64,000 nt of DNA from Oscillospiraceae bacterium (GTDB taxonomy: Bacteria > Bacillota > Clostridia > Oscillospirales > Oscillospiraceae). Position numbers and translations under genes: made by a program. The DNA lies in contig JAFUNI010000001.1 in assembly GCA_017482385.1 (NCBI GenBank), positions 2,788 through 66,787 on the forward strand. Direction: 5' to 3'. The notes beneath the pieces are model-generated. The model saw nothing but the letters and a program-made list of their open reading frames with translations, was not told where the DNA came from and did not search any database. The stretch's first letter is position 1. Each line of letters opens with the position of its first letter. Positions 9,870 to 31,877 of this stretch are shown piece after piece.

Positions 9870-10697
9870 TTGAACCAATGTAAGGTGATTGCTATCACCA
9901 ACCAAAAAGGTGGCGTGGGTAAAACTACAACGACCGTCAATCTTGGCGTAGGCTTGGCCAAAGAAGGCTATCGGGTCCTTTTAATTGACGCAGACCCTCA
10001 GGGCAGTTTGACAGTAAGCCTGGGCATTAAAGATCCTGATTCCTTAGACGAATCTCTGGCAACGGTTATGACGGCATCTATCGAGGATATACCGCTGTCA
10101 CCTGAGACGGGCATTATTCAACACAACGAGGGAGTTGATTTAATGCCATCGAACATCGAACTGTCTGGCATTGAAACCGGCTTGTTTAATACGATGAGTC
10201 GTGAATATGTTCTCCGGAATTATATCAACACGGTCAAGAACAATTACGATTATATTCTTATTGATTGCATGCCGTCCCTTGGCATGATGACTATCAATGC
10301 TCTTGTGGCAGCAGACAGCGTAATCATCCCATCTCAGCCGAATTTCTTATCGACCAAGGGTTTGAACTTGCTGCTTCGCTCCATTTCGAAGGTGAAGCGC
10401 AGTATCAATCCTGCGCTGCGGGTTGATGGTATCCTGCTAACGATGGTGGACAGCCGCACAAACAATGCAAAGGACATCATATCATCGCTTCGACAAACCG
10501 TCGGGCAGAATATTCGTGTATTTGAAACAGAAGTCCCTCGTTCAGTCCGTGCGGCAGAAAGTGCGCTGGCAGGTGTGAGTATCTTCACGCATGACAGGCA
10601 AAGCAAGGTCAGCATGGCCTATGAAAATCTGACAAAGGAGGTGTGCGAAGTTGGCAGGGAGACCCAAACTCGACCTGGGCCTGACTGGGTACGATGA
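9870..10697 (+). CDS. parA: ParA/Soj-family ATPase
   Basis: NQKGGVGKTTT deviant Walker A, LLIDADPQGSLT, ILIDCMPSLG; TTG start after GAAAGGAG. Confidence 0.93.
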   Translation: MNQCKVIAITNQKGGVGKTTTTVNLGVGLAKEGYRVLLIDADPQGSLTVSLGIKDPDSLDESLATVMTASIEDIPLSPETGIIQHNEGVDLMPSNIELSGIETGLFNTMSREYVLRNYINTVKNNYDYILIDCMPSLGMMTINALVAADSVIIPSQPNFLSTKGLNLLLRSISKVKRSINPALRVDGILLTMVDSRTNNAKDIISSLRQTVGQNIRVFETEVPRSVRAAESALAGVSIFTHDRQSKVSMAYENLTKEVCEVGRETQTRPGPDWVR

Positions 10698-11592
10698 ACT
10701 CTTCATGACCGATGAGGAACGACAAGAATCAAAGTTGCCCCGCATCTATGACATTCCAATTGAACTGATCGATGACTTCCCCGGACATCCTTACAAGGTT
10801 CGGATTGATGAGGATATGCAGCAGCTCGTTGAGAGTATCAAGGAACGAGGCATTCTGACACCGGTTACACTCCGACAAAAAGATGACGGCAGATACGAGA
10901 CAGTATCTGGCCACCGCCGTAAGAAGGCGTGTGAGCTAGCGGGAATGCCTACTGTGAGAGCAGAGGTCCGAGACATGACAAGAGATGAAGCCATTATCTA
11001 CATGGTGGAATCGAACTTTCAGAGATCTCAAATCCTTCCCAGTGAAAAGGCCTTCTCATATAAGATGAGACTTGAGGCAATGAACCGTCAAGGAAAGCGA
11101 ACAGACCTAACTTCGTGCCCACTGGACACAAAGTCTGACAGTGGCGCAGCAGTGGGCAAAGACCAAGGCGACAGTAGAAGACAGGTATTCCGCTATATTC
11201 GACTCACGGAGCTGATTCCGGAGATTCTTCAGATGGTGGATGATGGAAAGATTGCTTTCCGCCCGGCAGTTGAAATTTCGTACTTGAGTGAGTTGGAGCA
11301 GAAATGGCTTCATGAAGCAATGGAGTACGCTGATGCAACGCCATCTCTGGCCCAGGCAATCAAGCTCAAGGCTTTCTCCCAAGACAAGACACTGGGCCCT
11401 CATGTGATCGAGGCGCTGCTGTCGGAGGAGAAGCCTAACCAGCGAGAAAAGTTCAGCTTCCGAGCAGATCGACTGCGCAAGTTCATCCCTGAATCCGTTC
11501 CGTTCAACCAGACGGAGGACTTTGTGTGCAAGGCCTTGGAGCATTACCAGCAATTCCTGGAGCGACAACGAAGGGATCGTGGTGACCGGTGA
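10651..11592 (+). CDS. parB: ParB/RepB/Spo0J-family protein
   Basis: LVESIKERGILTP, SGHRRKKA (CTP-binding motif), ESNFQR; overlaps parA. Confidence 0.92.
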   Translation: MAGRPKLDLGLTGYDELFMTDEERQESKLPRIYDIPIELIDDFPGHPYKVRIDEDMQQLVESIKERGILTPVTLRQKDDGRYETVSGHRRKKACELAGMPTVRAEVRDMTRDEAIIYMVESNFQRSQILPSEKAFSYKMRLEAMNRQGKRTDLTSCPLDTKSDSGAAVGKDQGDSRRQVFRYIRLTELIPEILQMVDDGKIAFRPAVEISYLSELEQKWLHEAMEYADATPSLAQAIKLKAFSQDKTLGPHVIEALLSEEKPNQREKFSFRADRLRKFIPESVPFNQTEDFVCKALEHYQQFLERQRRDRGDR

Positions 11593-11673
11593 TTGGTCGC
11601 TGTTTCCCCCTCTCACACTCTCCCCCTGCGTATACAAGCTGTTCTACCAGCTGAAAGAGAAGTATTTGTAGGT

Positions 11674-11702
11674 TTGACGGAAAGATAGCGAGTCCGTATT
11701 CT
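11674..11702 (+). promoter_or_regulatory. candidate internal sigmaA promoter for the lipoprotein/pilus locus
   Basis: TTGACG, 17 bp, TATTCT; GGAGG RBS downstream. Confidence 0.5.
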
Positions 11703-11726
11703 GGAAGCAGAAACGGAGGTAATGCC

Positions 11727-12437
11727 ATGAAAAAAGCACTCGCAATCATTCTTCTGCTTACAGTGCTCCTTCTTTCGGCCTGTGGCAGAAACAACACTGA
11801 GCCAGTTCCTTCAACTGGGGCTGCAGCCCAAGTCACAGAAGCAACGGATACCCAAACTACTGGGCAGACGATGATGCCGGAAAATACTACCGAAGCGGCT
11901 AACAATTCGTCTTCTCAGCCGGTAACTGAACCTTCCGAAACAACCGGTCCCACAGTTCCATCAGAAACTGTGAAGCCAACGGCTCCCACAGAACCGAAAG
12001 AAGAAATCAAGAAAGATCCACTTCCTACTACTCAGCCAACAGAAGAAACGCAGCCGAGCACAACCGAGCCTGAAACACAGCCTACGGAAACAGAAGCACC
12101 CACAGAGCCGACCAATCCTCCAACACAACCGACCGAACCGGAAGAGGAAACTACCACTCCACCTGCAATAGAAGAGGCAGTGTGTAAGCATGAGTGGAAG
12201 TGTATCCATCACGATGAGGAAGGCCATTGGAGAGCAGGCATTATCTGTGATTGTGGCTGGACAGTGTATGGTGATCCAGACACTCTTACAGCACTTTGGA
12301 ATGCTCACTCGGCGTCATTTCCTGCTGCAGAATCACTCTTTGATCATGGCGGCTTCGGTAGCATGGACGAGTGGATCGTAGACAAGCCCGCATATGACGA
12401 GTGGGTATGCCGTCACTGCGGAGAACCAAAACCATAA
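11727..12437 (+). CDS. lipoprotein with Pro/Thr/Glu stalk and Cys/His-rich C-terminal domain
   Basis: Lipobox LLLSAC, TEP/TQP repeats, C-terminal CKHEW...CDCG...H...H...CRHCG. Confidence 0.85.
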   Translation: MKKALAIILLLTVLLLSACGRNNTEPVPSTGAAAQVTEATDTQTTGQTMMPENTTEAANNSSSQPVTEPSETTGPTVPSETVKPTAPTEPKEEIKKDPLPTTQPTEETQPSTTEPETQPTETEAPTEPTNPPTQPTEPEEETTTPPAIEEAVCKHEWKCIHHDEEGHWRAGIICDCGWTVYGDPDTLTALWNAHSASFPAAESLFDHGGFGSMDEWIVDKPAYDEWVCRHCGEPKP

Positions 12438-12455
12438 CCCATACCCCATACCCGC

Positions 12456-12495
12456 AAAGCCTCTTGGTGTTAATCATCAAGGGGCTTTTTATTTT
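12456..12495 (+). terminator. intrinsic terminator inside the ICE
   Basis: AAAGCCTCTTGGTG-ttaat-CATCAAGGGGCTTT then TTATTTT. Confidence 0.8.
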
Positions 12496-12518
12496 CCCAA
12501 AAAAGGAGGAAAATCGCA

Positions 12519-15500
12519 TTGAACGTAATGAAGAAAACACTGGCACTTCTGTTGGTTCTTGTGATGGCAATCTCCTGCTTGCCTCTTGGGGCAGTAACAG
12601 CATTCGCAGCAGAGGTTGATGACACACAACCGCCTGCTGATGAAACGCAGCCTCCTACTGTTCCGGAAGAGGTGCCAGAGATTACCGAAGTAACAGAAGA
12701 AACGCAGCCGAGCACGACCGAGCTGGAAACACAGCCCACGGAACCTTTATCTGTGGATGAAACTCCTGCAGAAGAAACATCTGAGCCAACTGAAGCACCT
12801 CAGGAGGTTATGATGTTCTCAGCAAGTCCCGCCAGTGATGACGATGGCGGCAGCTCCGGTTCTGAAACCGGTGACGGTGGCGATGGCGGTGGCAACTCCG
12901 CTGGCGACGGTTCCAGCAACATGATTGCTGTGGGTGTCACAATGCAGATCGTGTACTACCGCTATGACCAATGCTACAACCGGTATAATTCCCACGGAAG
13001 TGTTATCAACTCCGTGCAGACCGGCAAAGCAATTCCTTGGAATGATACCGGAAAGGACCAGGGCACAACTGCAACAACGGTCTTTGACACTTACACGATC
13101 ACGCCTCATACCTTTTTCGCAAAGGCTCGTTGGCCTTCCTATCCCTATGTGTATCACTTTCCTTATGAGAACTTGAAGGACGATAAATGCACCTTCTCTT
13201 GGACCGGCTTTACGAACTTCTGGTTCAACTACAACAATCCCGGTGGTAAGGCGTCCACCTATCCCCGAATTGTCCGTAATGAAGAAGGTGGCAGCAAAGC
13301 CATTGAAGATTTCCTTGCCCGAATCATTCTTGGCAATGATTACGGCGCATGGGATAAGCTGGATGTTGCAGCCGGTGATACTGTGGCAACCGACTCCTCC
13401 CTGTTCGCAGAGGTGTTGAAGTATCTGGGTGCCAGCGATCTTGCCATTCAGAACTACTTGGATTCCTACTACGGCAAGCTGAGTGTTACCCAGGATGGCA
13501 ACGTGCTGATCCCGACCATCATTTGGTCCTATGTTGCTGCGGAAAACCTCAGTGGCACCAGCCGCATCTACACCATCGGTGACGTTGCCGCCAACGGCAG
13601 CAAAAACAAAAGCTGGCTTAGTACCGCCTACACCTCTGGATCTAACTGTAATACTGGCTTTGGCGACTGTACTTGGAAAAAGGGCAGTAGTGACACCATG
13701 ATCTGTAAGCTGATGCTTGGCGGTAAACACTATCCCGGACATGGTACTACGATCTGGACAGAGCAAGGTTCTTCCAATCTGTTTGGAACAGGCCTTGTCA
13801 ACCGAATCCAGACCGAAGTGGATTCCACAGCCGAGAACGGGACCAATACCTTCTACTACCTCAGAGGTTACTGGACCCCCTATGGCACCGGCACCGGCGA
13901 AGTTTCTTTGACTAAGACCAACACCGCAGGCACCGCTAATTTGGCAGGTGCAGAGTTCACTCTGTATCGTGATCCTGCGTGTACTACGCCCATTACCAGT
14001 GCAGATTACAAGTCTCTCAACACTTCCGATACCGGCTATGTCAATGTAAGCACCCGCAAGACCGATGCAAACGGCAAAGCTAACTGGACAGGCCTCTATA
14101 CCGGCGCGTATTTTTTGAAAGAAATCAAGGCTCCGGAAGGCTATAAGGTTAACATTGATGCCAGCGGTAATGTGGAAGTTACCGAAGTTTCCGTAGATAT
14201 TGGTGCTACTGCTGTGACCCTCACAAATGCGGAAAACTCCAAGCCTGTTTCTTTGAAGAAGTCCATCAATGCTTCCCAGACCTGCATTGATCAGATTAAG
14301 GACAATAGCCTTTATTCTCTGGCAGGTGCAGAGTACACCATTTCTCTCAATGGTAAAGTGGTAGAAACGCTTGTAACCGATGCCAACGGCAACGCAACAT
14401 CCACCAAGCAGTACAACATTGGTGATGTGCTGACCATCAAGGAAACCAAGGCTCCCAAGGGCTACAAGCTGGATACCAAGACCCACACTCACACGGTTAC
14501 TTCCAGTGAGAACCTGATCTCTGTATCCGACATCCCCATTTTTGACCCGCCTTTTGTTTTGACGAAGGTGGACAAGGATACCACCACTCCGCAGGGTGAT
14601 GGTTCCTTTACCGGCGCAGTCTTCAAGTGGGAATACTTCCCCAACAACGATTGGAGTGGCACACCCGCACGGGTTTGGTACTTTGCAACAGACAGCGCTG
14701 GCAGATGTGTGTATAGCAAGGATTACCTTGCATCCGGTTACACCAGTGATGCACTGTATGTATCTCCTGCCAATGTGCAGCAGCTTCCCCTTGGTACTGT
14801 GAAAATCACGGAAGTGAAGAACTCTTTGGGTTACACCGTGATCGCAAGTCCTCTGTACTGTACGATTGCAGAAGATGCTTCCAAGGCCAGCGGAGCAAAG
14901 CACATTTGGACGGACGAATCCAAGGCGATTCTGACCCAGATGGCTAATGGCGACTGGGGTGTTTACGAACCTATCGACATCAATCTGTTTGGTTCTGTAA
15001 GCATTGAGAAGCACGATGCCGTTACCGGACAGACCGCACAGGGCGAAGCTACCTTGGCAGGTGCCGTGTATGAAGTCATCAACAGCAGCACCAACCCTGT
15101 GGTAGTGAACGGCAAGACCTATGCTCCCGGTGAGGTCATCTGCAAGCTGACTACGGATGCAAAGGGCATCGCAAAGACCGGAAACATCTTCCCCGTCGGA
15201 CGGTACACCATCCGCGAATCCGCAGCTTCCCAAGGCTACTTGGTGAATAGCGAATGGCAGAAAACCTTTGCCGTCACCGCAGAGCAGAAAGACCACAACT
15301 TCACCTATGCCGATGGCACCGGATGCCCCGAAACGGTTATTGCTGGTAAAGTTCAGATCAGCAAGAAGATCGTGAATACCATTGATAACCTCTATGCTGC
15401 TGAAGTCGGTGCTAAGTTCTCCGTCACTGACAGTAAGGGCAACGTGGTGGATACCATCGTTACCGCAGAAAACGGCGTCGGTATTTCCAAGGATTTACCC

Positions 15501-16430: not shown

Positions 16431-16453
16431 CCAGGTGAATAGAGCCTCCAACC

Positions 16454-18781: not shown

Positions 18782-18790
18782 ATTACCCCG

Positions 18791-20479: not shown

Positions 20480-20731
20480 ATGTTTGTTGATAGAAATCTT
20501 GTTCAAAGAATGAAGGATCAATATCCTCCCGGCACACGAATCGAACTGGACTTCATGGGTGATGATCCCCGTCCTATTGCTCCCGGCACAAAAGGTACGG
20601 TAAGAATCGTGGACGACATGGGTACCGTCCATTGCGATTTTGACAATGGCCGTCGCCTGGGTCTTATTCCTGGCGAGGATTCCTTCCATGCAATCACCGA
20701 AAGAACACGATCTGACAGAGACGCGAGGTGA
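20480..20731 (+). CDS. DUF4314-like ICE protein
   Basis: YPPGTRIEL..M.DD...PGTKGTV..VDD.GT.H..FDNG..LG pattern; ends RSDRDAR. Confidence 0.75.
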   Translation: MFVDRNLVQRMKDQYPPGTRIELDFMGDDPRPIAPGTKGTVRIVDDMGTVHCDFDNGRRLGLIPGEDSFHAITERTRSDRDAR

Positions 20732-20736
20732 ACGAT

Positions 20737-21702
20737 ATGGAGATGACTATGCGTCCCATGACTGAAATGGAGCAAATGTATTGCTACACCCAATCTCAGC
20801 AACTCATGGCCACTACCGGGTGTATCGGTCACTTGCGAGGTGATCTGGACAGTACCGGAGAACAGTTTCACTCCTCATGGGATGACCATCAAGCACAGCA
20901 TAAGACGCAGGAATTCAAAGATGAATTTGATGCTGTAATCAGTGCGCTTCGCACCGATCGGAATTTAGGCGCTCTTCTGGAAAGCCGAAGAACATTATCC
21001 AACTACTGTTGGACGCATCCTGATGCCAGGATTGTAGCTGGCTATGACGATTATGGTTTCCGGCTGGATACCGCAGAGCACACGTATATGCTCAGATTCA
21101 ATCCCAAGCCGGGCATGTATAACATCTACTGTTACTGCTATAAACGGGATTGGCTGGATCAGCACCTGCAGCAGGCGGCGAAGGGAATTCGTTTTATTGA
21201 TAGTCACTACAACGAGAAATTCCGCATTGCTGACGGAGAGAAAGTGCGCATCATCACTCCCGGTGGGGATTACCGCGATGTGCGTGTTCGCTATATTGAT
21301 GATTATCATATTGAGACCCAAGCTGAATGGGGCAACACACTGTATCACATCTGTGAGTTTGCAGAACGGTTTGAGGCACGGGGTTGTCAGGATATCTTCC
21401 CGTTAAGGTCCAATTTACCGGACCGATGCTATAGTATCCTAGAATCCACCGGCGATATCATCATTATCGCCAAGGGAGAAAAGGGCTATTATCACGTTGA
21501 GGTCACTGAGAATACCAAGGAAGAAAACCGCCGCTTCGTAGATAGCCAGAACGCTAAGCTGGGAATCACCAGAGGCCAGGAAGAGGCAATGAAGGCTGGA
21601 TCCATGTTTGGCTGGTTAGTTCCTGCTGCAGACCCCAAAAACTACGATGACAACGGAAGACCAATTCCCCCGACAAGAAAAGACCGGGGCGATGCAAGAT
21701 GA
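20737..21702 (+). CDS. conserved ICE hypothetical protein
   Basis: GAGGTG RBS; GCIGHLRGD N-terminal motif and AMKAGSMFGW C-terminal motif recognised from Firmicute ICE proteins; ends RKDRGDAR. Confidence 0.7.
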   Translation: MEMTMRPMTEMEQMYCYTQSQQLMATTGCIGHLRGDLDSTGEQFHSSWDDHQAQHKTQEFKDEFDAVISALRTDRNLGALLESRRTLSNYCWTHPDARIVAGYDDYGFRLDTAEHTYMLRFNPKPGMYNIYCYCYKRDWLDQHLQQAAKGIRFIDSHYNEKFRIADGEKVRIITPGGDYRDVRVRYIDDYHIETQAEWGNTLYHICEFAERFEARGCQDIFPLRSNLPDRCYSILESTGDIIIIAKGEKGYYHVEVTENTKEENRRFVDSQNAKLGITRGQEEAMKAGSMFGWLVPAADPKNYDDNGRPIPPTRKDRGDAR

Positions 21703-21711: not shown

Positions 21712-22086
21712 ATGAGCTACGGAAAAAACGCAAAAGATCTTCGTTTTCAAACAGTAACCGTTTTCGGCACTCCCATGCTTTTTACTGAAAGCTATGTGGA
21801 TCCCGAATCGCTGCCCAAAGGCGTCTATCAATACCTGGTTAGGCACCATAGTGAGGATCTGGAGAAGCCTGTTCAAATCACTGATTGGGCTGTCGTAAAC
21901 CGCATGGGATCTTTGCTGACCACAGAAGCCATTGCTTTGGACAATGTCCCCGGCAGTTACGTGAAGAAACGTTCTGTCGATGCTGAAAAGGACTGGGAGT
22001 GGAACGGTTACTTTGTGAAGCTTCATGAGTATCTGGAGCGTTATCCTGTTCAACGAACTGCAGCCGATAGGAGTGATGTAAGATGA
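21712..22086 (+). CDS. LPD28-like domain protein
   Basis: VFGTPMLFT...LPKGVYQY.VRH...VVN.MG..LT pattern; ends DRSDVR. Confidence 0.6.
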   Translation: MSYGKNAKDLRFQTVTVFGTPMLFTESYVDPESLPKGVYQYLVRHHSEDLEKPVQITDWAVVNRMGSLLTTEAIALDNVPGSYVKKRSVDAEKDWEWNGYFVKLHEYLERYPVQRTAADRSDVR

Positions 22087-22265
22087 AATATATCGTCGAT
22101 GTCAAAGACATTAGTTATGGCAGAATTGAAGTTGAGGCCGATTCTGTAGAGGAAGCTCAAGAAAAAGCCGAAGAAATGTATTTCAGTGGGCAGGTGCATT
22201 GGGCTGATTGTGATGTCAGCTATGAGGCCCGACCTGACTATAGAGAGCGAAGTGATGCACGATGA
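22083..22265 (+). CDS. DpnD/PcfM-like small protein
   Basis: KYIVDV...IEVEADSVEEAQEKAEEMY; ATGA overlap; ends RERSDAR. Confidence 0.65.
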   Translation: MKYIVDVKDISYGRIEVEADSVEEAQEKAEEMYFSGQVHWADCDVSYEARPDYRERSDAR

Positions 22266-22834
22266 GCCTAAACACCGCCGAAGGAAACTTCGAGTTCATT
22301 ATATGGTCCAACGAACACTACGACTGGGCAAACTGGCGCGAAGCTTTTGAAGAGGACTATTCAGATGCTTCTGACGAAAAGAAGTATCAGTTAATGAGCG
22401 ATCTGAACGCCGAATATCTTGAAGACGAGCGTAGGGAGATGGATGTCCAAGTTGGATCTCCCATTATTGTGATTGCTGATATTGGCAGATGGGATGGCCG
22501 CCATACTGGATATCGAGAAATCGAAAGCGGCTGTTTGAAAGATTGCCTCTACACGGAGCTGGACGGTGTAACCTGGTATGTAGACAACCGTGGTGATTTC
22601 CGTATGGACGGCTACCATCATGACGGTCACAACTATTACCTCTACCGGCGTTATCGGGACAATACTACACCTGAAGCCATCGAAGAATTCCAGGGCAAGA
22701 TCCTGGACCATACGCTGACAGAGGAAGACATCGACAGAGTAACTGTCCGGCTGGGCGATGATATTTCTAAAATCTATGGGTTTACTCTACCGGATCAAAT
22801 AAAAAGTAATCGTGAAAGGAGCGATGCGAGATGA
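22262..22834 (+). CDS. ICE hypothetical protein
   Basis: ATGA-coupled 190-aa ORF; ends RERSDAR. Confidence 0.7.
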   Translation: MSLNTAEGNFEFIIWSNEHYDWANWREAFEEDYSDASDEKKYQLMSDLNAEYLEDERREMDVQVGSPIIVIADIGRWDGRHTGYREIESGCLKDCLYTELDGVTWYVDNRGDFRMDGYHHDGHNYYLYRRYRDNTTPEAIEEFQGKILDHTLTEEDIDRVTVRLGDDISKIYGFTLPDQIKSNRERSDAR

Positions 22835-23265: not shown

Positions 23266-24679
23266 ATTTTTGGACCAGGACAGATTCTATCTGGATCTGG
23301 AAAACAATCAAATCGAATGGATGTATCATAATCCTGACTCTGCAACACAAGGGCAGTTTGTGATCAACGTGTTTGGAATATCGCTGTTAGAGGCGGCGTT
23401 AACGGACGCACTGGATGTTGAGGATGCGTTTGATTATATTGGAAGCAATTGTAGGCAGTATCTGGCTGACAAGGGAACAGAAGCTTATGGTGAAGCATGG
23501 CGTCGGATGGAGACAGAGGTGCCTTTTGCTGTAGACTGCAGCTTTACTACTCTGGAGCAGCTACAATTGGCCTTCCAAGCTAAGGATCTAATCAATCAGT
23601 ATTGCCAGGAAGAGTTCGGATCTGACGCTGACTTTGCTGACCTGCGTCAAATCGGAATTGGCTACACGACCATTACTGATGCAGAGCATGACATTCAGGC
23701 TTACGCCAACCTGATTGACCATCGTATTGAGGTTCACCTTAACTGGGTAGTGGCGCAGTATTACCAGTATGAGTCTTTGGCAGACATGGTCACGAATGGT
23801 CTTCCGGAACTGGACTTTGATAGTCTGACGTATCTTCCGGAATGGCTTGTTAAGAACCATGTTAGGAATGTTGATTTGGATCGCATCGCTACAAGGCTCA
23901 CACTCTTTATGAAAAGCTATCAACCCAAAGCTTATGAGGAAACCATGGAACCTGGCGATACAGATGCAGATATGATTTCACGGATGAAGGCGGATCTGCG
24001 AGATCCGGATGTGATCCCGGAAGTGATTACGGAAATCGACGAAATTGTCAAGGAAGGCGACCTTACTGAAAAAGAAAAGTACGAGTGCCGTTCTATTATG
24101 ACGGGCCTGTACCACCTGTATGCAGAGGATATGTATGTTCCGGTCTATGACCGGGAGACTGACATTCTTTTCGAAGCCTTTGAAAAAATGGGGTTACAGG
24201 ATCTGGATATCGGCTTCGGTGATGAAGGTGTTTCTGTGAAATCCCAGGCTGGACACTGGCAGGGAATGGGGATCTACACCCATCTTAGCGATATACTGCC
24301 AGTAGAAAAACTCCAGCAGCTGCGAGACGAGTATTTTGGATGCTTTATCGACCTTCGGGATATAGCGCACCATTATGGTGTGATGCTCGGTTATGATATA
24401 GATCCTCTTCCTGTGGCTCGCTTGGATTTCCTTGGAGCAAACGGAAAAGTAGGAGAGCGGATCGAATATTTCACTGAGGCAGATTTCCTGAATGCTGTGC
24501 ACGAGGAGCTGGACGCCGGTGTGCCGCTGGCAGTAGTTTTGTATCGCGATCCTTGCGGAAAGCGAATCTCGCGTGATTTCCTGAATGATGTGGGTACACT
24601 CCCCAAGGGTCTTACCGAAGAAGAGGTTTCGTATATGATACCGGCGAAGAGCATCCGTGAGAGGGGTGAATCAAGATGA
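23252..24679 (+). CDS. acidic multi-domain ICE hypothetical protein
   Basis: GGAGGTG RBS before GTG 23252; long open frame; ends RERGESR. Confidence 0.7.
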   Translation: MAMPEFLDQDRFYLDLENNQIEWMYHNPDSATQGQFVINVFGISLLEAALTDALDVEDAFDYIGSNCRQYLADKGTEAYGEAWRRMETEVPFAVDCSFTTLEQLQLAFQAKDLINQYCQEEFGSDADFADLRQIGIGYTTITDAEHDIQAYANLIDHRIEVHLNWVVAQYYQYESLADMVTNGLPELDFDSLTYLPEWLVKNHVRNVDLDRIATRLTLFMKSYQPKAYEETMEPGDTDADMISRMKADLRDPDVIPEVITEIDEIVKEGDLTEKEKYECRSIMTGLYHLYAEDMYVPVYDRETDILFEAFEKMGLQDLDIGFGDEGVSVKSQAGHWQGMGIYTHLSDILPVEKLQQLRDEYFGCFIDLRDIAHHYGVMLGYDIDPLPVARLDFLGANGKVGERIEYFTEADFLNAVHEELDAGVPLAVVLYRDPCGKRISRDFLNDVGTLPKGLTEEEVSYMIPAKSIRERGESR

Positions 24680-24762
24680 AGCGAGAAATAATCTTTATTG
24701 ATGAGGAGACCCTCACTCCGGAAGAATTGGAGGTAATCGACGATGGCGAGACCGAAGAATAA
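24676..24762 (+). CDS. possible 28-aa acidic peptide bridging to ardC
   Basis: ATGA overlap with the upstream stop; MKREIIFIDEETLTPEELEVIDDGETEE; contains the ardC RBS. Confidence 0.3.
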   Translation: MKREIIFIDEETLTPEELEVIDDGETEE

Positions 24763-25753
24763 GGATGAGTACCGTGCGGAGCTGGCAGAGACCTTCGCGC
24801 ATGTCCTTGAAGAGCGTGGGCTGGAATGGCGCAAGGAATGGCGCGGTTCCGGTGGTGATGCTCCGCATAATGGCATTACCAAGGCCTGCTACCGTGGAAG
24901 CAATGCATTCTGGTTGTCCTTGATTTCTATGATGAAGGGATATACTGATCCCCGCTGGGTTACTATGGTTCAGATTATGGACAATGATGGCAAGTACCAT
25001 CCAAAACAGAAATGGCACCTGAAGGCGGGTTCCAAGGCGACCTACGTTGAATATTGGTACCCCTATGATATTCCCAATCGCAAGGCACTCACCTGGGATC
25101 AGTATAAGCAGGAAATCGCAGATGGAAGAAGCGACTCTGAATTTAAGCTCTCAACCCGATACACCGCAGTGTTCAATGCTTGCGAAGTGGAAGGCATGCC
25201 AGAGATCCCTGTATTTGAGGAAGCAGATATTACGCAGGATGAGCTGATTGCAAAGCTCAGCGCCGGTATGGAGGTCGAAATTCTGACTGATGGCGGCGAC
25301 CGTGCTTACTATTCTCCTTCGCAGGACAAGATTCATTTGCCGACTCCCGGATCGTTTACAAGTGAATATGCCTTCAATGCAACAGCTCTCCATGAGTTGG
25401 CGCATTCCACCGGCCACCCTTCACGACTCAACCGTGACATGGGTGGCTTTTTTGGTAGCTCCGAATATGCCTATGAGGAACTGGTAGCCGAGATGTGCTC
25501 CTGCTTTATGGGCATCAACCTGGACCAAACGGCTTCGCAGGCTCATATCGATAACCACAAAGCATATGTTCAGTCCTGGATTCAAGCTATTCGTGATAAG
25601 CCTGAAACGCTGATTCGAGCAATCAAGGATGCGCAGTCGGCAGCGCTTTTCATGGATTGGAAAGCTGGACTTATCACCGATATGGAGTATTCTAAGGGCG
25701 CAGGTTCCGCGATGGAGATTACTGTGCGCAGCAGAGATCGGGATGCCAGATAA
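24743..25753 (+). CDS. ardC: ArdC-like antirestriction protein (ssDNA-binding DUF1738 + zincin domain)
   Basis: W..EW...PHN...YRGSN..W...DPRWVT..Q N-domain; HELAHSTGH and YAYEELVAE metalloprotease motifs; ends RSRDRDAR. Confidence 0.85.
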   Translation: MARPKNKDEYRAELAETFAHVLEERGLEWRKEWRGSGGDAPHNGITKACYRGSNAFWLSLISMMKGYTDPRWVTMVQIMDNDGKYHPKQKWHLKAGSKATYVEYWYPYDIPNRKALTWDQYKQEIADGRSDSEFKLSTRYTAVFNACEVEGMPEIPVFEEADITQDELIAKLSAGMEVEILTDGGDRAYYSPSQDKIHLPTPGSFTSEYAFNATALHELAHSTGHPSRLNRDMGGFFGSSEYAYEELVAEMCSCFMGINLDQTASQAHIDNHKAYVQSWIQAIRDKPETLIRAIKDAQSAALFMDWKAGLITDMEYSKGAGSAMEITVRSRDRDAR

Positions 25754-25814
25754 TTTGCACATTTTTCTTTTTCTCATAACTCCCGTATAATAAAAGAAAA
25801 ACGGAGGTTGTATC

Positions 25815-25970
25815 ATGAGATTTAAGAAAGCACAGAAGCGCATCGTTGAGCTAAGCCCTGCAGAAGTAAGATTGCTCCGATATGCACTCATGCAGTTCCG
25901 GAATAAGGTCCTGTGTGCTGGAAAGCCCACAGAGGACATTGACGAAATGCTCATCAAAGTAACACGCTGA
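25815..25970 (+). CDS. 51-aa small protein, paralog of 31686..31877
   Basis: GGAGG RBS; translated by hand as MRFKKAQKRIVELSPAEVRLLRYALMQFRNKVLCAGKPTEDIDEMLIKVTR; below the ORF-track cutoff. Confidence 0.7.
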   Translation: MRFKKAQKRIVELSPAEVRLLRYALMQFRNKVLCAGKPTEDIDEMLIKVTR

Positions 25971-26059
25971 ATTTCGCATATAGTAGACATTCCTGAGGTA
26001 CACCTCATGGTCACACGCCTAATGCCGCAGTAAGGTGATCTGCGGAGGGAGGTGAGCCG

Positions 26060-26206
26060 ATGGACTACAAGCTATTTTTGTCCCTTGTCATCGATGAGCT
26101 GGAATATATCCAGCCATTCGATTTCGAGGGTGAGTATGAACTAATGAAGGCCGCAGGAGCACTGGTTGTCCTGAAGGAGTATATCGAAGCGAAAATCAAC
26201 AAGTAA
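26060..26206 (+). CDS. 48-aa small hypothetical protein
   Basis: GGAGGTG RBS; MDYKLFLSLVIDELEYIQPFDFEGEYELMKAAGALVVLKEYIEAKINK. Confidence 0.55.
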   Translation: MDYKLFLSLVIDELEYIQPFDFEGEYELMKAAGALVVLKEYIEAKINK

Positions 26207-26213
26207 ACAGAGG

Positions 26214-26254
26214 AAAAAGATGCCGTGGAGAATAAAAACTTCACGGCATTTTTC
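26214..26254 (+). terminator. intrinsic (possibly bidirectional) terminator inside the ICE
   Basis: A-tract, ATGCCGTGGAG-N8-CTTCACGGCAT, then TTTT. Confidence 0.75.
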
Positions 26255-26276
26255 TGTTCTCGGAAAGGAGGTCAAA

Positions 26277-26774
26277 ATGTTAAATGGCGCTTTGTATATG
26301 GCGTTTCTGTTCCTTGCAAAAATGATGGATAATGCACTGAGCACAGCGAAAACCATATTGATTCAGCGAAACCGTTGTTTGCTTGCAGGCGTATGTTTAG
26401 CTGTTTCAAACTATATCTATCTGCTCATCACAAAGGATGTTGTCTCTTCAGATAGCAATCTTGCAATGATAGTCGTATCCGTAGCCAGTGGTGTCGGATG
26501 CTGCTTAGCGGTTGCAGTGAGCAACAAATTCTCCAAGGAAAAAACCTATGTGAATGTCATTATGTCAGACAATCGGGAAGCTATGCAGGCGTTTAGAGAT
26601 TTCCTGGCAGAGCGCCATATCACCAATGTGACCACAGATAGTTACACGTTGGACTGGGAAACCAAGACAATCACTATAACCGCCTATGCTGAAACCAAAG
26701 AACAGCACCGGCTTATTGGCCAATATATCGAAAATAGTCCGCTGAAATTCAAACGGGTTATTCAGAAGGCGTAG
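26277..26774 (+). CDS. UPF0316/DUF5698-like membrane protein
   Basis: GAAAGGAGG RBS; three hydrophobic helices (FLFLAKMMDNALSTAKTILI...) plus a small soluble C-domain. Confidence 0.6.
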   Translation: MLNGALYMAFLFLAKMMDNALSTAKTILIQRNRCLLAGVCLAVSNYIYLLITKDVVSSDSNLAMIVVSVASGVGCCLAVAVSNKFSKEKTYVNVIMSDNREAMQAFRDFLAERHITNVTTDSYTLDWETKTITITAYAETKEQHRLIGQYIENSPLKFKRVIQKA

Positions 26775-26785
26775 AAAGGAGATAT

Positions 26786-27109
26786 ATGGCGGAAGAAATA
26801 TATGCAAAGCTCTACGATCGGTTGTACGCCGAACAGGAGAAGTATGTGGAATGGCTGCTTTCTCAGCCACGCATCGAGATTATGCGGCAAAGCTATGAGT
26901 TTGCAATGCGTGAGGATATCCTCATGATTTTTGAGAATGCAGAAATTGAGCCGGAACACGCACAAGCATTGTTTGATAAGGGAACCACCCTAGCTGACTT
27001 GTTCCATGAGTTCGAGGATCTTGAAACAAACCACATGCAAACCATTCGAGATATGATCGAAGGGCGAGCGAAAAATATCATTCGCGAGGGCGAGAAAGGA
27101 GATCGGTAA
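26786..27109 (+). CDS. DUF3848-like protein
   Basis: LYDRLYAEQEKYVEWLLSQP..EI...YE...REDI pattern. Confidence 0.7.
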   Translation: MAEEIYAKLYDRLYAEQEKYVEWLLSQPRIEIMRQSYEFAMREDILMIFENAEIEPEHAQALFDKGTTLADLFHEFEDLETNHMQTIRDMIEGRAKNIIREGEKGDR

Positions 27110-28048
27110 ATGCCCTATATTAATGCAGAAGACATTATGGCTGCAAGGCAGGTTGATTTGCTGTCCTATTTGCAAACCTATGAGCCCAACGAGCTGGTGC
27201 ATCTTCAAGGCAACACCTACTGTACCCGTGAGCACGATAGTCTGAAGATCAGCAACGGAAAGTGGCATTGGTTTTCTCGCGGTATCGGTGGCCGAACCGC
27301 TCTGGATTATTTGGTGAAGGTCAAAGAAATGTCTTTCCCTGATGCGGTAAGACTCTTGACAGGAGCTCCGATTCAGACCTATGTGCCACCTAAGGAGCAT
27401 AGGACCCCAAAGGAAAGAAAACTGCTGCTTCCTGAAGTTGATACCAACTGTGAAGAAGTTAGAAAGTATCTTCAGGGACGTGGAATTCATCCTACCATCA
27501 TCGATTACTGTATCGAGAATAAACTTCTTTTTCAAACAGCCAACTATAAGAACGCTTTGTTTGTTGGCTACGACGGCGAAGGGAAGCCTCGCTATGGGGC
27601 GCTTAGAAGTACCTTCAGCGCCTATAAATCGGAGGCCACCGGCAGTGACAAGCGCTACTCCTTTTCCATTATGGCTAGCACCACGGCGGATACGGTGCAT
27701 GTTTTTGAGTCCGCAATTGACTTGTTAAGCTTTGCAACGCTGCAGCTTTACGAAGGTGGCGATTGGAAAAGTCAAAACCTGCTGTCTTTGGCGGGTGTCT
27801 TTATGCCGAAGCGCCAGGGTGTTGTGCCTGTGGCATTGAGCAGGTTTTTAGACGAGAATCCTCAAATCAAAACGATCCGGCTGCATCTGGATAATGATGA
27901 GGTTGGACGTGCCGCTGCAGTTGGCATTGCGGAAGGGCTTGCAGATTACACTGTTATCGACGAGCCGCCCGGTAGCGGTAAGGATGTAAACGAGCAGCTC
28001 CAGCTTAAGGTTGGGCTTATTAAACGGAAGGAGGACAGAGAACGCTAA
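27110..28048 (+). CDS. DUF3991 + Toprim domain protein (primase-like)
   Basis: EHDSLKI...W.WFSRGIGG..ALD; YLQGRGI; VFESAIDLLS; LHLDNDEVGR. Confidence 0.82.
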   Translation: MPYINAEDIMAARQVDLLSYLQTYEPNELVHLQGNTYCTREHDSLKISNGKWHWFSRGIGGRTALDYLVKVKEMSFPDAVRLLTGAPIQTYVPPKEHRTPKERKLLLPEVDTNCEEVRKYLQGRGIHPTIIDYCIENKLLFQTANYKNALFVGYDGEGKPRYGALRSTFSAYKSEATGSDKRYSFSIMASTTADTVHVFESAIDLLSFATLQLYEGGDWKSQNLLSLAGVFMPKRQGVVPVALSRFLDENPQIKTIRLHLDNDEVGRAAAVGIAEGLADYTVIDEPPGSGKDVNEQLQLKVGLIKRKEDRER

Positions 28049-29082
28049 TGGAGATAAAACTGTATCAGATCAATCTGGATCGTGATGAGGAGGGCCTTGC
28101 GTTTATGGGACAGGATTATCTTTCAAAACAGAAGGATGATCCGACGCGGATAGATAGCCAAATCTATGATTGCGTATTCGAGGGAGAGGTGGACTGCAGC
28201 AGCCCGGAGGATGTGTTTGCAATGTTCAACTTCGAACACCCGGATGGATACAAGGGCCGCTCTATGTCCGTGTCCGATGTTGTGATTTGTGCTCCGGATG
28301 GTGGCGCACCTGCAGCATATTTCTGTGACAGCATCGGTTTCAAGCAGGTGCAATTTAATGAAGAACTGGCAAAGACACTACAGACAGAAATGACTGTCGT
28401 GCTGCTGGAGCCCGGTAAGCTTGCACGTGTTGCAACCATCGACTCTTCTCTTGAAGGAATGCAGAAGGTTGTTGGAGGCCTGATCGAACCGTTCTATCCC
28501 TTCGAGGAGCAGGTGTGTATCATCTGTAACGAAGAAGGAAAGATCAACGGTATGCCTCTCAACCGCGCCATTTATGCAGAGCCTGAGGAGATTGATATGT
28601 CCTATCCGGAATTGAGATCTCAATTCTACAAGGCCGAAGAGGCAGGTAAGCACATCTCCGGTTACGTTGTGTTCAGCCAGGATAGCTTCAAAGATCCCTA
28701 CTCCGAGACCTCCAGAACCTATGTCATTTCCAGTGACAACAAAGCCTTCCAGGCAGGCATGGGCGGCTACTCCATCTACGGCTATTGCCTTGATGGAACA
28801 GACCCTTGTGTTCGATTGGACCGGTATATGGCTGTCGAGCACGGCGGCAAGGACGGTTGGAAAATCGAACGCTGTTATATGAAATCGGATGCCCGGCAAA
28901 TGATTGATATCATTGCCGGACCTTGTTTTATCTGCGACTGCAGCGGTGAAGACTTTGGAAGTCTTACCGAGGATCAGCTCCGAAGATATATGGAACAGTT
29001 CAAATATCCCGAACACTTCTTTCGAGCGGGCGGGGAAATCAAGGCTGTTCCGTATCCTCCGGAGAAAAACCAGGAGCGCTGA
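28048..29082 (+). CDS. YodL + DUF3846 domain protein
   Basis: FNFEHPDGYKGRSMSVSDVV (YodL) and LEGMQKVVGGLIE...CNEEGKINGMPLNR (DUF3846). Confidence 0.75.
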   Translation: MEIKLYQINLDRDEEGLAFMGQDYLSKQKDDPTRIDSQIYDCVFEGEVDCSSPEDVFAMFNFEHPDGYKGRSMSVSDVVICAPDGGAPAAYFCDSIGFKQVQFNEELAKTLQTEMTVVLLEPGKLARVATIDSSLEGMQKVVGGLIEPFYPFEEQVCIICNEEGKINGMPLNRAIYAEPEEIDMSYPELRSQFYKAEEAGKHISGYVVFSQDSFKDPYSETSRTYVISSDNKAFQAGMGGYSIYGYCLDGTDPCVRLDRYMAVEHGGKDGWKIERCYMKSDARQMIDIIAGPCFICDCSGEDFGSLTEDQLRRYMEQFKYPEHFFRAGGEIKAVPYPPEKNQER

Positions 29083-29087
29083 GGCGC

Positions 29088-29172
29088 GGGGCTACCTCCA
29101 AGGAAATGCCCATGGCATTTTCTTAGCAAGCATCGCCTTTTGACGGCAACTATTGCTTGTTGGGGTAGCCCC
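29088..29172. other. candidate origin of transfer (oriT)
   Basis: Intergenic, directly before mobC-relaxase; inverted repeats GGGGCTACC/GGTAGCCCC (29088/29164) and AAATGCC/GGCATTT (29104/29114); minus-strand ATGCTTGC resembles MOBP nic sites. Confidence 0.55.
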
Positions 29173-29205
29173 AAACCCTTATGCCAGCTGAAAGGAGGAA
29201 AACTG

Positions 29206-29517
29206 GTGAGGCGCAGAAACAAAATCGACCTGCGGCTTAATGATGCGGAACTGGCACAGCTCAACCATGACGTTGAGAAATCCGGATGGTCGCGAGAAAA
29301 GTATTTACGAGCGTTGATCGCCAACCGACCGATCCGAGAGCGCCCTCCGATGGACCTCGTTTCTGTGCTGAAGCAGCTCCAGCAAATCAACAACAACATG
29401 AACCAAATCGCTGTGAAAGCAAACTCACTTAACTTCGTGGACACCGCAGCATACTGGGAAAACGTTGATCGCCTGGAGGAGCTTAAAGGAAAACTGTTGG
29501 AGGTGATGTACGGTTAA
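29206..29517 (+). CDS. mobC: MobC relaxosome accessory protein
   Basis: AAAGGAGG RBS, GTG start; RHH-like RLNDAEL...SREKYLR; QINNNMNQIA motif; TAATG overlap with relaxase. Confidence 0.85.
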   Translation: MRRRNKIDLRLNDAELAQLNHDVEKSGWSREKYLRALIANRPIRERPPMDLVSVLKQLQQINNNMNQIAVKANSLNFVDTAAYWENVDRLEELKGKLLEVMYG

Positions 29518-30947
29518 TGGCAGTCACGTCGTTGTGGCGCGTCAAGGGCTATATCGGCAAGGTTTTGCTTTATGCCGAGAACCCGGACAAGACCACCAAC
29601 CCAGAGACGATCCCTGTTGCGGAAAGCCTCAACAGAGACACATTGGAGGATGTTATCTCATACGCAGGCCGCGAGGAGGCGACCAACCAGCGGCAGCTTG
29701 TTAAAGGTATCAATTGCACTGCAGCAAATGCTCGCAAAGAAATGATGGATGTGAAAAGGCAATTTGGGAAGGAAGACGGAACGATTGCCTATCACGGCTA
29801 TCAATCTTTTCGGGAAGGTGAAGTTACACCGGAACAAGCTCACCAAATCGGCATCAAGCTTGCTACCGAATTGTGGGGTGACCGATATCAGGTGCTTGTG
29901 GCAACGCACCTAGATAAAGACTCTCATATCCACAATCATTTTGTCATCAATACCGTTTCTTTCGTGGATGGTATCAAATTTCACAGAACAAAGTCAGACT
30001 ATCGTCAAATGCAGATAGCCTCTGACAGACTTTGTCGTGAACATGGCCTGTCGGTTATCCGCCATCCTGAAGGAAAGCGCATGAACTACAGTGAATGGTC
30101 TGCTGAGCAGAATGGCAAGCCGACCAACCGGAGTATGATCCGTGCGGACATTGATCGTGCGATTGCTGCATCGGTAACAGAACGAGATTTTTATGACCTT
30201 CTGGAATCCTGGGGGTATGAATTTAAGTTCTATGGCAAGAGTGGTCACCCCTTAGAACGACCTTCGCTAAGATTGAAAGGGGCTGACCGCTTTTGTCGTT
30301 TCGACCGACTCGGCGAAGATTACTCCGTAGATGAGATCTGCAACCGCATTTTGGAAAACATCCTTGAAAAGGATCCCTTTCCAGAGGATGAGGAGCGCCG
30401 GTACCACCAGTACCGTCAGGAGCGTCCTCCTCGGACCAAAGCAAAGGGGCTTGCAGCATTGTATTACTACTACTGCTATGAGCTTCATATCATCGTACGA
30501 TTCCCGGCGTCTATCAAAAAGATTTCACCTGCTTTACGAGAGGATCTGCGAAAGTTAGATCGTCTGGATGAGCAGACAAGGTTCCTTGCCGATTACGGAA
30601 TCGAAAACCGTGAGGATCTGGACAGATACCGCAACGATGCAGCTGAGGAGCTGACCGCTTTGAGGGCAGACCGAGATAACCTGAGAAACAAGCTGAAGCG
30701 AGTGATTCGTTCCGGTGATGAGACGGCCATTCTGGAAGTGAAAAAGCAGATTGCAGCAGTTTCAGATCGGATTAATAAGCTCAAAGCCTCATTCAAGATT
30801 TGTGACAGCGTGGAAGAACGTGCCTCCAAAATACACGAGCAGCTTGAAACGCTGTACAACGAACAACCCGAAAGAAAGGAGAATTCTGATGAACTATTCA
30901 GGAGACGCGGCGGAACAAGTCGTAAGGATGTCCCTAAACGGCGTTGA
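29517..30947 (+). CDS. MOBP-family relaxase
   Basis: AYHGYQSF, HQIG..LA, VATHLDKDSHIHNHFVIN (3H motif). Confidence 0.92.
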   Translation: MAVTSLWRVKGYIGKVLLYAENPDKTTNPETIPVAESLNRDTLEDVISYAGREEATNQRQLVKGINCTAANARKEMMDVKRQFGKEDGTIAYHGYQSFREGEVTPEQAHQIGIKLATELWGDRYQVLVATHLDKDSHIHNHFVINTVSFVDGIKFHRTKSDYRQMQIASDRLCREHGLSVIRHPEGKRMNYSEWSAEQNGKPTNRSMIRADIDRAIAASVTERDFYDLLESWGYEFKFYGKSGHPLERPSLRLKGADRFCRFDRLGEDYSVDEICNRILENILEKDPFPEDEERRYHQYRQERPPRTKAKGLAALYYYYCYELHIIVRFPASIKKISPALREDLRKLDRLDEQTRFLADYGIENREDLDRYRNDAAEELTALRADRDNLRNKLKRVIRSGDETAILEVKKQIAAVSDRINKLKASFKICDSVEERASKIHEQLETLYNEQPERKENSDELFRRRGGTSRKDVPKRR

Positions 30948-31686
30948 AGTCGCCGCTAAGATCAGCGGCAAGGCGGCTGAGCGATTGGCTGTCTTGCTTT
31001 ATGCAGTCCTCCGAGATCAAAAGAAAACTAGGGGTAAAACCCGACTCACCAACATGCTGCGAAGCGGCAAGGAGTTGAAGGTTTTTGCAGTCAAGGATTC
31101 CGAACTGCAGAAGTTCTGCGAGGAAGCTAAGAAGTATGGCGTTCTGTACTGTGTTCTTAAGGACCGTAATGCGCAGGACGGCCTGACGGATATTATGGTA
31201 CGTGCAGAGGACGCCAGCAAGATCAACCGGATCTTCGAACGTTTCGGTCTGGCAACCATCGATATGGGTTCTGTGAAGACGGAGATTGAACGCGGTCGTG
31301 CAGCAGAGCAGACTGGTGGCGAAATCCCTGTACCTGAGCGCACTGGACCTATGGAGGATAAGGTGCAGACGTTCCTTGATGGTGTGGTTCAGCCACCTCC
31401 CAATCCCACCGCAGAAAAGAACCATACGGAAAACCCCACCACGGCCCGGACGACGAAGTCCCATCGGTCCGAGCCTTCATCCGTGCGCAGAAACGGCCCC
31501 GGCGAGGGCGCCCCTGAACGAGCACCACAGAGAGTCCGTCCTTCTGTAAGACGTGAACTTGAAGAGATTCGTGCCGAACAGAGGAGAAAGCCGGAAACCA
31601 GCAGAGGCAACCATACTCGTTCTGGGCAGACGCAGCATAGAATGCCGCAGTCGCCCAAGCGTAAACCCGTAAAGGAGGGACGCTGA
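30889..31686 (+). CDS. PcfB/DUF3801-family protein
   Basis: MNYSGDAAEQVVRMSLNGVE..., F..EAKKYGVLYCV; AAAGGAG RBS. Confidence 0.8.
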   Translation: MNYSGDAAEQVVRMSLNGVEVAAKISGKAAERLAVLLYAVLRDQKKTRGKTRLTNMLRSGKELKVFAVKDSELQKFCEEAKKYGVLYCVLKDRNAQDGLTDIMVRAEDASKINRIFERFGLATIDMGSVKTEIERGRAAEQTGGEIPVPERTGPMEDKVQTFLDGVVQPPPNPTAEKNHTENPTTARTTKSHRSEPSSVRRNGPGEGAPERAPQRVRPSVRRELEEIRAEQRRKPETSRGNHTRSGQTQHRMPQSPKRKPVKEGR

Positions 31687-31877
31687 TGGGAAATGAGAAA
31701 GTTGTTGTAGAACTAGATGACTTCGAACAGCGCCTTATGGTCAGCGGTCTTGCTGACTTCCGCAATGACCTGATTAGAGACGATAAGCCCACGGAGGATG
31801 TGGACGATCTTATCTTAAAGGTCATTGATGCCCCAACCAAAAAGGAAAAACGAAGGGCAGACCGTGAGGCAAGATAA
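31686..31877 (+). CDS. 63-aa small protein, paralog of 25815..25970
   Basis: TGATG coupling; shares VEL..E.RL..L..FRN..KPTED.D..KV; ends RRADREAR. Confidence 0.75.
   Translation: MGNEKVVVELDDFEQRLMVSGLADFRNDLIRDDKPTEDVDDLILKVIDAPTKKEKRRADREAR

Follow-up and report, generated by a model that had tools for sequence, protein, structure and literature searches.

A short arginine-ending C-terminal peptide is shared by many soluble proteins of an ICE (integrative and conjugative element) in a 64,000-nucleotide stretch of DNA from Oscillospiraceae bacterium (GenBank assembly GCA_017482385.1, contig JAFUNI010000001.1, forward-strand positions 2,788 to 66,787), which we refer to as the window. This tail is selected at the protein level, and it tracks the lineage of the element, not that of the protein or the host, as homologous proteins of a second ICE lineage end in a different, acidic-hydrophobic tail. 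An address tag that recruits proteins to the type IV secretion system (T4SS) of the element is the best explanation, to which we assign a probability of roughly one half.

C-terminal tails in the window

The sequence-only reading of the window had listed a set of strict and looser C-termini, and every one of them was reproduced, codons included, by translation of the plus-strand open reading frames (ORFs). The gene identities it had named were confirmed by Pfam: LPD28, DUF4314, ArdcN with MPTase-PolyVal, DUF3848, DUF3991 with Toprim_2, YodL with DUF3846, and ParB_N all score above the gathering threshold. The tails and the coupling protein of the element are listed below; all tails were read by ORF translation, and "Pfam" marks proteins with an additional domain assignment.

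11569..11589, + strand: ParB, RRDRGDR, codon CGG before TGA, then a 134-nt gap
20708..20728, + strand: DUF4314 protein (Pfam), RSDRDAR, AGG before TGA, next start overlapping or nearby
21679..21699 (last seven codons), + strand: unknown 324-aa protein (start 20728/20737, to 21702), RKDRGDAR
22063..22083, + strand: LPD28 protein (Pfam), ADRSDVR, ATGA overlap, Shine-Dalgarno (SD) sequence AGGAG encoding R-S
22242..22262, + strand: 60-aa DpnD/PcfM-like protein (Pfam), RERSDAR, Arg codon CGA
22811..22831, + strand: unknown 190-aa protein, RERSDAR, Arg codon AGA
24656..24676, + strand: unknown 480-aa protein (start 23237/23252, to 24679), RERGESR, ATGA-coupled to a micro-ORF
25730..25750 (last seven codons), + strand: ArdC (ArdC-N plus zincin MPTase; Pfam), RSRDRDAR, AGA before TAA, no ORF start after it, 61-nt gap
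27086..27106, + strand: DUF3848 protein (Pfam), REGEKGDR, a looser form
28025..28045, + strand: DUF3991/Toprim protein (Pfam), RKEDRER, Arg codon CGC, SD AAGGAGGA encoding K-E-D
29059..29079, + strand: YodL/DUF3846 protein (Pfam), PEKNQER, then ~120 nt of non-coding DNA
30924..30944, + strand: MOBP-type relaxase (Pfam), KDVPKRR, ambiguous, within the overlap with the conserved PcfB N-terminus
31663..31683, + strand: PcfB/DUF3801 protein (Pfam), KPVKEGR
31854..31874, + strand: 63-aa protein between PcfB and VirD4, RADREAR
31825..33696, + strand: VirD4-type coupling protein of the CD1115 family (Pfam T4SS-DNA_transf, TraG-D_C), ends ERKQEE, without the tail, putative reader

The six-residue motif [DE]R.[DE][AVS]R, under which the tails had been announced, fits five of the nine that were put forward as seen; those of ParB, DUF4314, ArdC and the 63-aa protein (31686) are one residue shorter. 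In this strict form the motif closes 5/55 window genes, where its internal frequency would predict 0.006. When relaxed to [DE]R.?[DE].?R, it closes 10/55 (0.014 expected) and 0/450 non-gene ORFs. Genes ending in Arg are concentrated in the block 10651-31877 (15/23 vs 2/32 elsewhere, Fisher p = 3.7e-6). The robust core consists of the terminal Arg, E or A before it, an acidic residue at -2/-3 and basic residues at -4 and -6. Although identical as peptides, the RERSDAR tails have different bases at 8 of their 21 nucleotides and are thus not a DNA repeat, as had been argued before, and all six Arg codons are used. In ArdC the appendix starts after ..SAMEI and in YodL after ..GGEIKAVP; the tail reads as a short C-terminal peptide appended behind the last folded domain. 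As the sequence-only reading had stated, the membrane parts of the T4SS, the pilus proteins and the defence cargo lack it, and it marks soluble transfer and establishment proteins.

Window proteins outside this set also end in Arg. ParA was set aside as a tagged protein: ParA and ParB overlap by 47 nt (10651-10697), the end ..DWVR of ParA is read in the +1 frame from the DNA that encodes the conserved ..GYDELF in ParB, and its terminal Arg, encoded in this overlap, may be a by-product. The host PucR-family regulator (103-1233) ends SSREAR, correctly reported earlier; with a background of ~5% terminal Arg and only eight host genes, chance is sufficient to account for it.

Terminal arginine across related elements

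To follow the tail beyond the window, we assembled the window, whose element belongs to what we call lineage 1, and 110 related ICE loci. Thirty of these loci were found via ArdC and 80 via VirD4 (67-88% identical to that of the window), and the sampled loci are phylogenetically related. All conserved ORFs of the sample were clustered into families, of which 54 were scored for terminal Arg; the untagged families of the same loci served as the background (5.5%).

Terminal Arg is distributed bimodally. It closes at least 70% of the members in 21/54 families, none of which has predicted membrane segments, and at most 30% in 31/54 families (pooled 35/638, 5.5%), with only two families in between. 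Two of the 21 high-Arg families call for caution, namely ParA with its ParB overlap and family 40, which is a minus-strand shadow ORF and was excluded. Family 38 was likewise not counted as tagged, as it is an LPXTG surface protein, in which a basic tail normally follows the anchor. Fractions of members ending in Arg are as follows.

ArdC: 29/29 locus orthologues
ParB: 16/17, with R[DG]DAR ends
DUF3848: 29/30
YodL: 7/7, and 6/6 of the strictly uncoupled members
DUF4314: 9/10
family of gene 20728: 14/14
190-aa protein (tail 22811..22831): 8/10
Toprim: 42/56
PcfB: 58/76
relaxase: 54/70 (..PKRR), tail within the PcfB overlap
VirD4 (untagged): 7/82
TrbC-like (untagged): 0/76
VirB6-like (untagged): 0/52
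VirB4 (untagged): 2/41
CHAP (untagged): 1/39
NikA (untagged): 5/69

Several of the untagged families are small and soluble. Tagged families that have no counterpart in the window comprise an ArdC-N-like protein, PcfM with DUF3846, SNF2, RadC, DUF5688 and DUF4313. In these related loci RadC, DUF4313, DUF5688 and DpnD-PcfM with DUF3846 score above the Pfam gathering threshold, and the SNF2 protein has SNF2-rel_dom just below and Helicase_C above it. Among the closest database cluster representatives of ArdC, 120/120 end in Arg and do so with 43 different heptads; none of four phage ArdC homologues that we examined ends in Arg.

The family-weighted consensus is [KR]-x-[KR]-x-[DE]-[EA]-R-COOH. Arg reaches a frequency of 0.91 at the last position, with Lys at 2%; at -1 the leading residues are E (0.37) and A (0.29), -2 holds D or E, and positions -4 and -6 each have R or K with 0.55-0.58. 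Conservation over the final 24 residues is highest at the last one, with 4.0-4.3 bits in seven of eight families (Toprim 3.0), followed by -1 with 2.1-3.7 bits (Toprim 1.2), and the preceding 22 positions mostly hold 1-2.5 bits. Over the last ten residues the mean net charge is +1.6 (range -0.1 to +4.2), and Arg makes up 23% of the tagged tails vs 4% of those in untagged soluble families.

Records from Monoglobus, Subdoligranulum, Cohnella and Paenibacillus extend the Arg ending to elements whose type IV coupling proteins (T4CPs) are ~46-69% identical. There it closes very large proteins as well, i.e., a 2559-aa ORF (L282 26-7705, ..KDYER) and a 1522-aa SNF2-related protein (L284 3381-7949, ..KTYER). 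Within lineage 1 we also looked for dialects, DAR or xER per element, and found no support for them, as elements mix both by eye.

Selection at the protein level versus translational coupling

The tail might be a by-product of translational coupling, with the SD sequence and the ATGA of the next gene encoding E-R-S ... R-stop. Such encoding does occur: in the window GAAAGGAG yields E-R-S and AAGGAGGA yields K-E-D, several tails overlap an ATGA, and those of ParA and the relaxase lie inside gene overlaps. We counted genes that are strictly uncoupled, i.e., without a start codon opening at least 15 codons within 30 nt. Of these, 39/48 in tagged families end in Arg vs 0/84 in the others (p = 3.5e-25). 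Among genes overlapped by ATGA or GTGA, Arg closes 73/90 in tagged and only 2/43 in untagged families. The motif is therefore not confined to genes with a downstream SD/ATGA, a confinement that the sequence-only reading had named as refuting its claim. ParB, ArdC and YodL, which it had singled out as keeping the tail without coupling, indeed have no nearby start after their 134-, 61- and ~120-nt gaps. Among ParB orthologues with no ORF start (45 or more codons, -25 to +45 nt of the stop), 12/12 end in Arg, using AGA, AGG, CGA and CGG. The terminal codons of ArdC are AGA (11), CGG (4), CGC (4), AGG (4), CGA (3) and CGT (2). The acidic tail of lineage 2, described below, is enriched among uncoupled genes too (9/25 vs 1/159). 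These counts led us to reject coupling as the main cause, which we consider very improbable; the tail is selected at the protein level. Coupling does contribute to positions -3 to -5 (E-R-S, K-E-E/D) in coupled genes.

The gene ending at 24679 is not uncoupled. This 480-aa gene is ATGA-coupled to a conserved 28-codon micro-ORF, MKREIIFIDEETLTPEELEVIDDGETEE (24676-24762), which overlaps the ArdC start and whose peptide is kept in at least 11 related loci as MK[KRT]EI[IV]F[IV][DE][DE][DE]TLTPEE[LW]E...

A second code in another ICE lineage

Lineage 2 was sampled with 80 loci (L111-L190, e.g., L116 2081-9357 and L111 1302-9595), whose T4CPs are 24-30% identical to that of the window. Here the tail EE[DE][DE]ME[FLMVI] closes eight families, all of which lack predicted membrane segments and are encoded upstream of the T4CP; among them are Toprim, two YodL families and a protein of 1228 aa. 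The acidic-hydrophobic tail is carried by 47% of the relaxases and is missing from the structural proteins of the T4SS.

Homologues of the Toprim, YodL, ArdC and relaxase families occur in lineage 2, and the same protein families can thus be compared across both. Terminal Arg closes 177/209 members of common families in lineage 1 vs 9/167 in lineage 2 (Fisher p = 2e-60). Acidic-hydrophobic tails show the reverse, 1/209 vs 87/167 (Fisher p = 6e-37). Both codes are mixed within a locus in only 2/110 and 2/76 loci. Hosts are not separated in this way: Faecousia genomes carry both lineages, and the metagenome-assembled genome (MAG) UMGS700 holds both kinds, its ArdC homologues ending ..RGRER and ..EEWEG.

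L025 is a lineage-2 element. Its ArdC is 68% identical to that of the window and its VirD4 only 27%; its proteins end ..EMEL, ..DLEM, ..MEISE and ..EPELD, with ArdC lacking the Arg tail and ending MEISE. Judged from these comparisons, the tail tracks the lineage of the element, not the protein family or the host. That the tail follows the lineage and that each element is nearly pure for one code favours a single, element-encoded reader.

L025 also carries a natural fusion of ArdC and YodL (10001-11854, 617 aa), the junction of which, ..SAMDIPEDKIITPGK.., has no Arg tail. We therefore rejected the idea that the tail is a polyvalent-protein linker or the remnant of a cleavage site, as this junction is tail-free and the fusion ends with a lineage-2 tail. 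A fusion of a 26220-like protein with Toprim (451 aa) is found at L030 9426-10781. Together the two cases show fusion and fission between separate genes and polyvalent forms.

Tn1549/CTn-like elements (L194 336-32551; L197-L276), with T4CPs 43% identical, show possible E-x-L ends: PcfB ..DRGVEL/..DREVSL, DUF6017 ..EGESL/..CEDTL, DUF3849 ..HDMEL and a 316-aa protein ..NDLEV. This group may hold a third code, for which few families were captured and the evidence is thin.

Proposed function of the tail

The element has the tail on soluble proteins of transfer and establishment (ArdC, ParB, DUF3991/Toprim, YodL/DUF3846, DUF4314, LPD28, DUF3848, PcfB and several unknowns), and related elements also have it on SNF2, RadC, DUF4313, DUF5688 and the giant ORF of 2559 aa. 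The relaxase is probably tagged as well. According to the mechanism that we favour, the tail would act as an element-specific address label, and one component of the same element would read the free Arg-carboxylate end, with VirD4 as the most likely reader. Tagged proteins would in this way be recruited to the Gram-positive T4SS and translocated with the DNA into the recipient, where they would protect and establish the incoming strand. The sequence-only reading had already interpreted the tail as a VirD4-read tag on proteins delivered to recipients; of this, the part that concerns a protein-level feature on soluble proteins stands, and an element-encoded reader is favoured by the second code, with the reading by VirD4 and the delivery as predictions. 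More tentatively, and at somewhat less than even odds, we propose that Gram-positive conjugative elements possess lineage-specific and mutually orthogonal C-terminal zip codes, at least two, by which their coupling proteins would load a kit of some 10-20 proteins for establishment and anti-defence, giant polyvalent ones among them, into the recipient.

Several observations weigh against address labelling. The relaxase is the only certain T4SS substrate; its end (PKRR) is a poor match to the motif and is hard to interpret because of the PcfB overlap, and the relaxosome accessory protein NikA/MobC lacks the tag. All other parts of the element, such as relaxase, VirB4 and PcfB, co-vary with the lineage as well, so that the comparison cannot single out VirD4. 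Because the loci are related, the p-values given above overstate independence. Two enterococcal plasmids (L191 and L192; T4CP 37-42% identical) showed no clear code. The tagged genes are probably situated in the leading region and could be expressed early in the recipient without protein transfer. Finally, an AlphaFold2 model of ArdC (25-sequence alignment) has a mean pLDDT (predicted local distance difference test) of 51.7, with the tail (323-336) as coil below 50, and by these values is too poor to place the tail as exposed.

With regard to the leading region, the ~120-nt non-coding gap between YodL and the NikA-like gene (29083-29205) contains a 9-nt inverted repeat, GGGGCTACC (29088) and GGTAGCCCC (29164), as well as a hairpin at 29100-29124. 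In several other loci YodL is followed by a GGCGCA(A/G)GGGT-like motif. This gap is a plausible candidate for the origin of transfer (oriT). As the tagged genes are all transcribed towards it, the block would sit where a leading region is expected.

Instead of serving export, the tail could dock proteins to an element-encoded hub, e.g., to build a complex for establishment or anti-defence on the relaxosome, ParB, PcfB or the incoming single strand. One code per element and a separate code per lineage would fit any element-encoded partner, and PcfB/DUF3801 is present in lineage 1 with none detected in lineage 2. However, none of the candidate hubs is known to bind peptides, PcfB and ParB are tagged themselves, and recognition of C-terminal peptides by coupling ATPases is an established precedent. 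We regard docking to a hub as unlikely, although it fares best among the alternatives.

Somewhat less probable still is a degron that shortens the life of establishment proteins, an alternative that had been raised in the sequence-only reading, acting through an element-encoded protease (e.g., the zincin domain of ArdC) or through host Clp after arginine phosphorylation. In its favour, the tagged proteins are needed only transiently and the tail is terminal and rich in Arg; ParA, ParB and the relaxase, however, are not obviously transient. The ends, with Arg in 91% and E (37%) or A (29%) before it, are unlike the non-polar SsrA/ClpXP type (..LAA-like). A mere instability tag would not require that each element be nearly pure for one code. 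Furthermore, both codes are found in the same host genus and in one MAG, so that a host protease would need two unrelated degrons.

Both docking and degradation survive as explanations, and the by-product of coupling and generic charged tails are largely excluded. The latter, disordered ends that nucleic-acid-binding proteins carry without any specific reader, would match the mixed charge, low complexity and mean net charge of the last ten residues, but are improbable in view of the preference for Arg over Lys at the end, the sharp terminal information peak, the bimodality by family and the acidic tail that lineage 2 swaps in on homologous proteins.

Relation to known systems

In T4SSs the known receptor for substrates is the coupling protein, which in Gram-negative systems reads C-terminal signals. 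Vergunst and colleagues reportedly described in 2005 (cited in PMC8406263 and PMC11288057) a positively charged C-terminal signal of the Agrobacterium VirB/VirD4 substrates VirE2, VirF, VirD2 and RSF1010 MobA, the consensus of which is said to be R-x7-R-x-R-x-R-x-Xn. The R-x7-R-x-R-x-R core of this consensus was found in the last 30 residues of only 7/602 tagged proteins. Thus the tail shares with the Agrobacterium-type signals the C-terminal position and the net positive charge with Arg enrichment, not that consensus. Like the Agrobacterium signal, it is short, Arg-dependent and carried by unrelated proteins, and reading by VirD4 is established there. Unlike that signal, Arg is the last residue here, acidic residues belong to the motif, the host is Gram-positive and the tail is known from sequence alone.

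Type VII EccC/EssC ATPases bind a C-terminal signal of EsxB. The Legionella Dot/Icm system uses Glu-rich C-terminal signals that are read by the T4CP complex and are diffuse over ~20 residues. The lineage-2 ending EE[DE][DE]ME[FLM] resembles these, being acidic with a hydrophobic residue near the end, a resemblance only, as Dot/Icm is a type IVB T4SS (T4CP complex described in PMC7251119) with a diffuse signal in place of the fixed terminal heptad of lineage 2. In the F plasmid, the C-terminal tail of TraD binds TraM (PMC8406263). As with TraD-TraM and type VII secretion, a short peptide at the terminus would dock the substrate, or the relaxosome, to an FtsK/VirD4-like ATPase; in F the arrangement is the other way round, with the tail on the coupling protein, and type VII secretion is a different machine.

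Counterparts of the tagged proteins are transferred by Gram-negative plasmids, i.e., pSa ArdC, the RP4 TraC1 primase and F ParA, ParB, SSB and PsiB (PMC5512222; PMC8406263; PMC11288057). The same classes, ParA/ParB, ArdC, primase-like and anti-SOS/anti-restriction proteins, recur in the "conjutome" of F/pED208, pKM101 and RP4 (PMC8406263, PMC11288057, PMC5512222). For F, positively charged C-termini are often enough for transfer. The signals of these plasmids are heterogeneous, some internal and others C-terminal, and were reported without a discrete shared consensus (PMC8406263, PMC11288057). Here, in contrast, a single sharply defined end is common to about a dozen proteins of each element.

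Iyer, Burroughs, Anand, de Souza and Aravind (2017) predicted that the domain set found in the tagged families is delivered with the DNA (PMC5512222). The tagged proteins share LPD28, ArdC-N with MPTase, YodL, DUF3846, DUF4314, DUF3848, Toprim, ParB, SNF2 and RadC with the polyvalent proteins of that work (PMC5512222). In contrast to polyvalent proteins, the window carries these domains as separate genes, and no common C-terminal tag is described there (PMC5512222).

Our literature search returned no earlier description of such a tag. To our knowledge, substrate signals of Gram-positive conjugative T4SSs are essentially undefined. We know of co-travelling proteins only for a few Gram-negative plasmids, and of no clear consensus there. 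Those parts of a December 2025 review that keyword look-ups brought up held nothing on Gram-positive T4SS substrate signals (PMC12857230). A sharply defined tag would make this question directly testable, and the present one can be read from sequence, marks about a dozen proteins in each element and exists in another lineage as a second, orthogonal version. If the address label is real, co-transferred anti-defence and establishment proteins of ICEs in gut Clostridia could be predicted genome-wide, and protein delivery by conjugation could be blocked or exploited through the tail. If the zip codes are real, sequence alone would be enough to predict which proteins an element co-transfers, and two elements that share a cell could keep their cargoes apart. 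The elements are common, with more than 540 related stretches in a T4CP scan of species-representative genomes, and some carry resistance genes. In L284, a Monoglobus pectinilyticus record, tet(O/32/O) and tet(40) adjoin T4SS genes (25220-28407).

Gene content of the window

Bases 1-9200 are host DNA with a G+C content of 0.53-0.585 and encode a PucR-type regulator, FtsE/FtsX-like proteins, PcsB-like M23 peptidases and lysyl-tRNA synthetase. The conjugative element begins at ~9870 on the + strand. By Pfam, it opens with ParA and ParB, followed by a pilin, an adhesin and sortases and then by small soluble proteins (DUF4314, LPD28, DpnD/PcfM-like and several unknowns). ArdC, DUF3848, DUF3991/Toprim and YodL/DUF3846 come next, ahead of the NikA-like accessory protein, the MOBP-type relaxase, PcfB/DUF3801 and the 63-aa protein. 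VirD4, a TrbC-like protein, PrgI, VirB4 and a CHAP hydrolase complete the transfer genes. The Gram-positive conjugative T4SS set is complete in Pfam terms, comprising VirD4, VirB4, PrgI (VirB3-like), the CHAP hydrolase, the relaxase and PcfB, and belongs to the VirD4 CD1115 family/VirB4 CD1110 family type (names from RefSeq annotation of relatives).

Defence-type cargo comes next: Sel1, a Ser/Thr kinase, type I restriction-modification (R-M), McrBC, ankyrin, WYL, a PARG-ARH-NADAR fusion and YgjP. The fusion (57437-60079) is an 880-aa protein of microbial PARG, ADP-ribosylglycohydrolase and NADAR, and its neighbours are the WYL regulator, McrBC and type I R-M.

Downstream of ArdC (25754-25790) we observed a conserved motif, TTTGCACATTT (variants [AT]TCGCACATTTGCA), which a regular expression matched in 14/29 loci. 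It is followed by CGTATAAT, and the motif is therefore probably a promoter or operator of the next operon.

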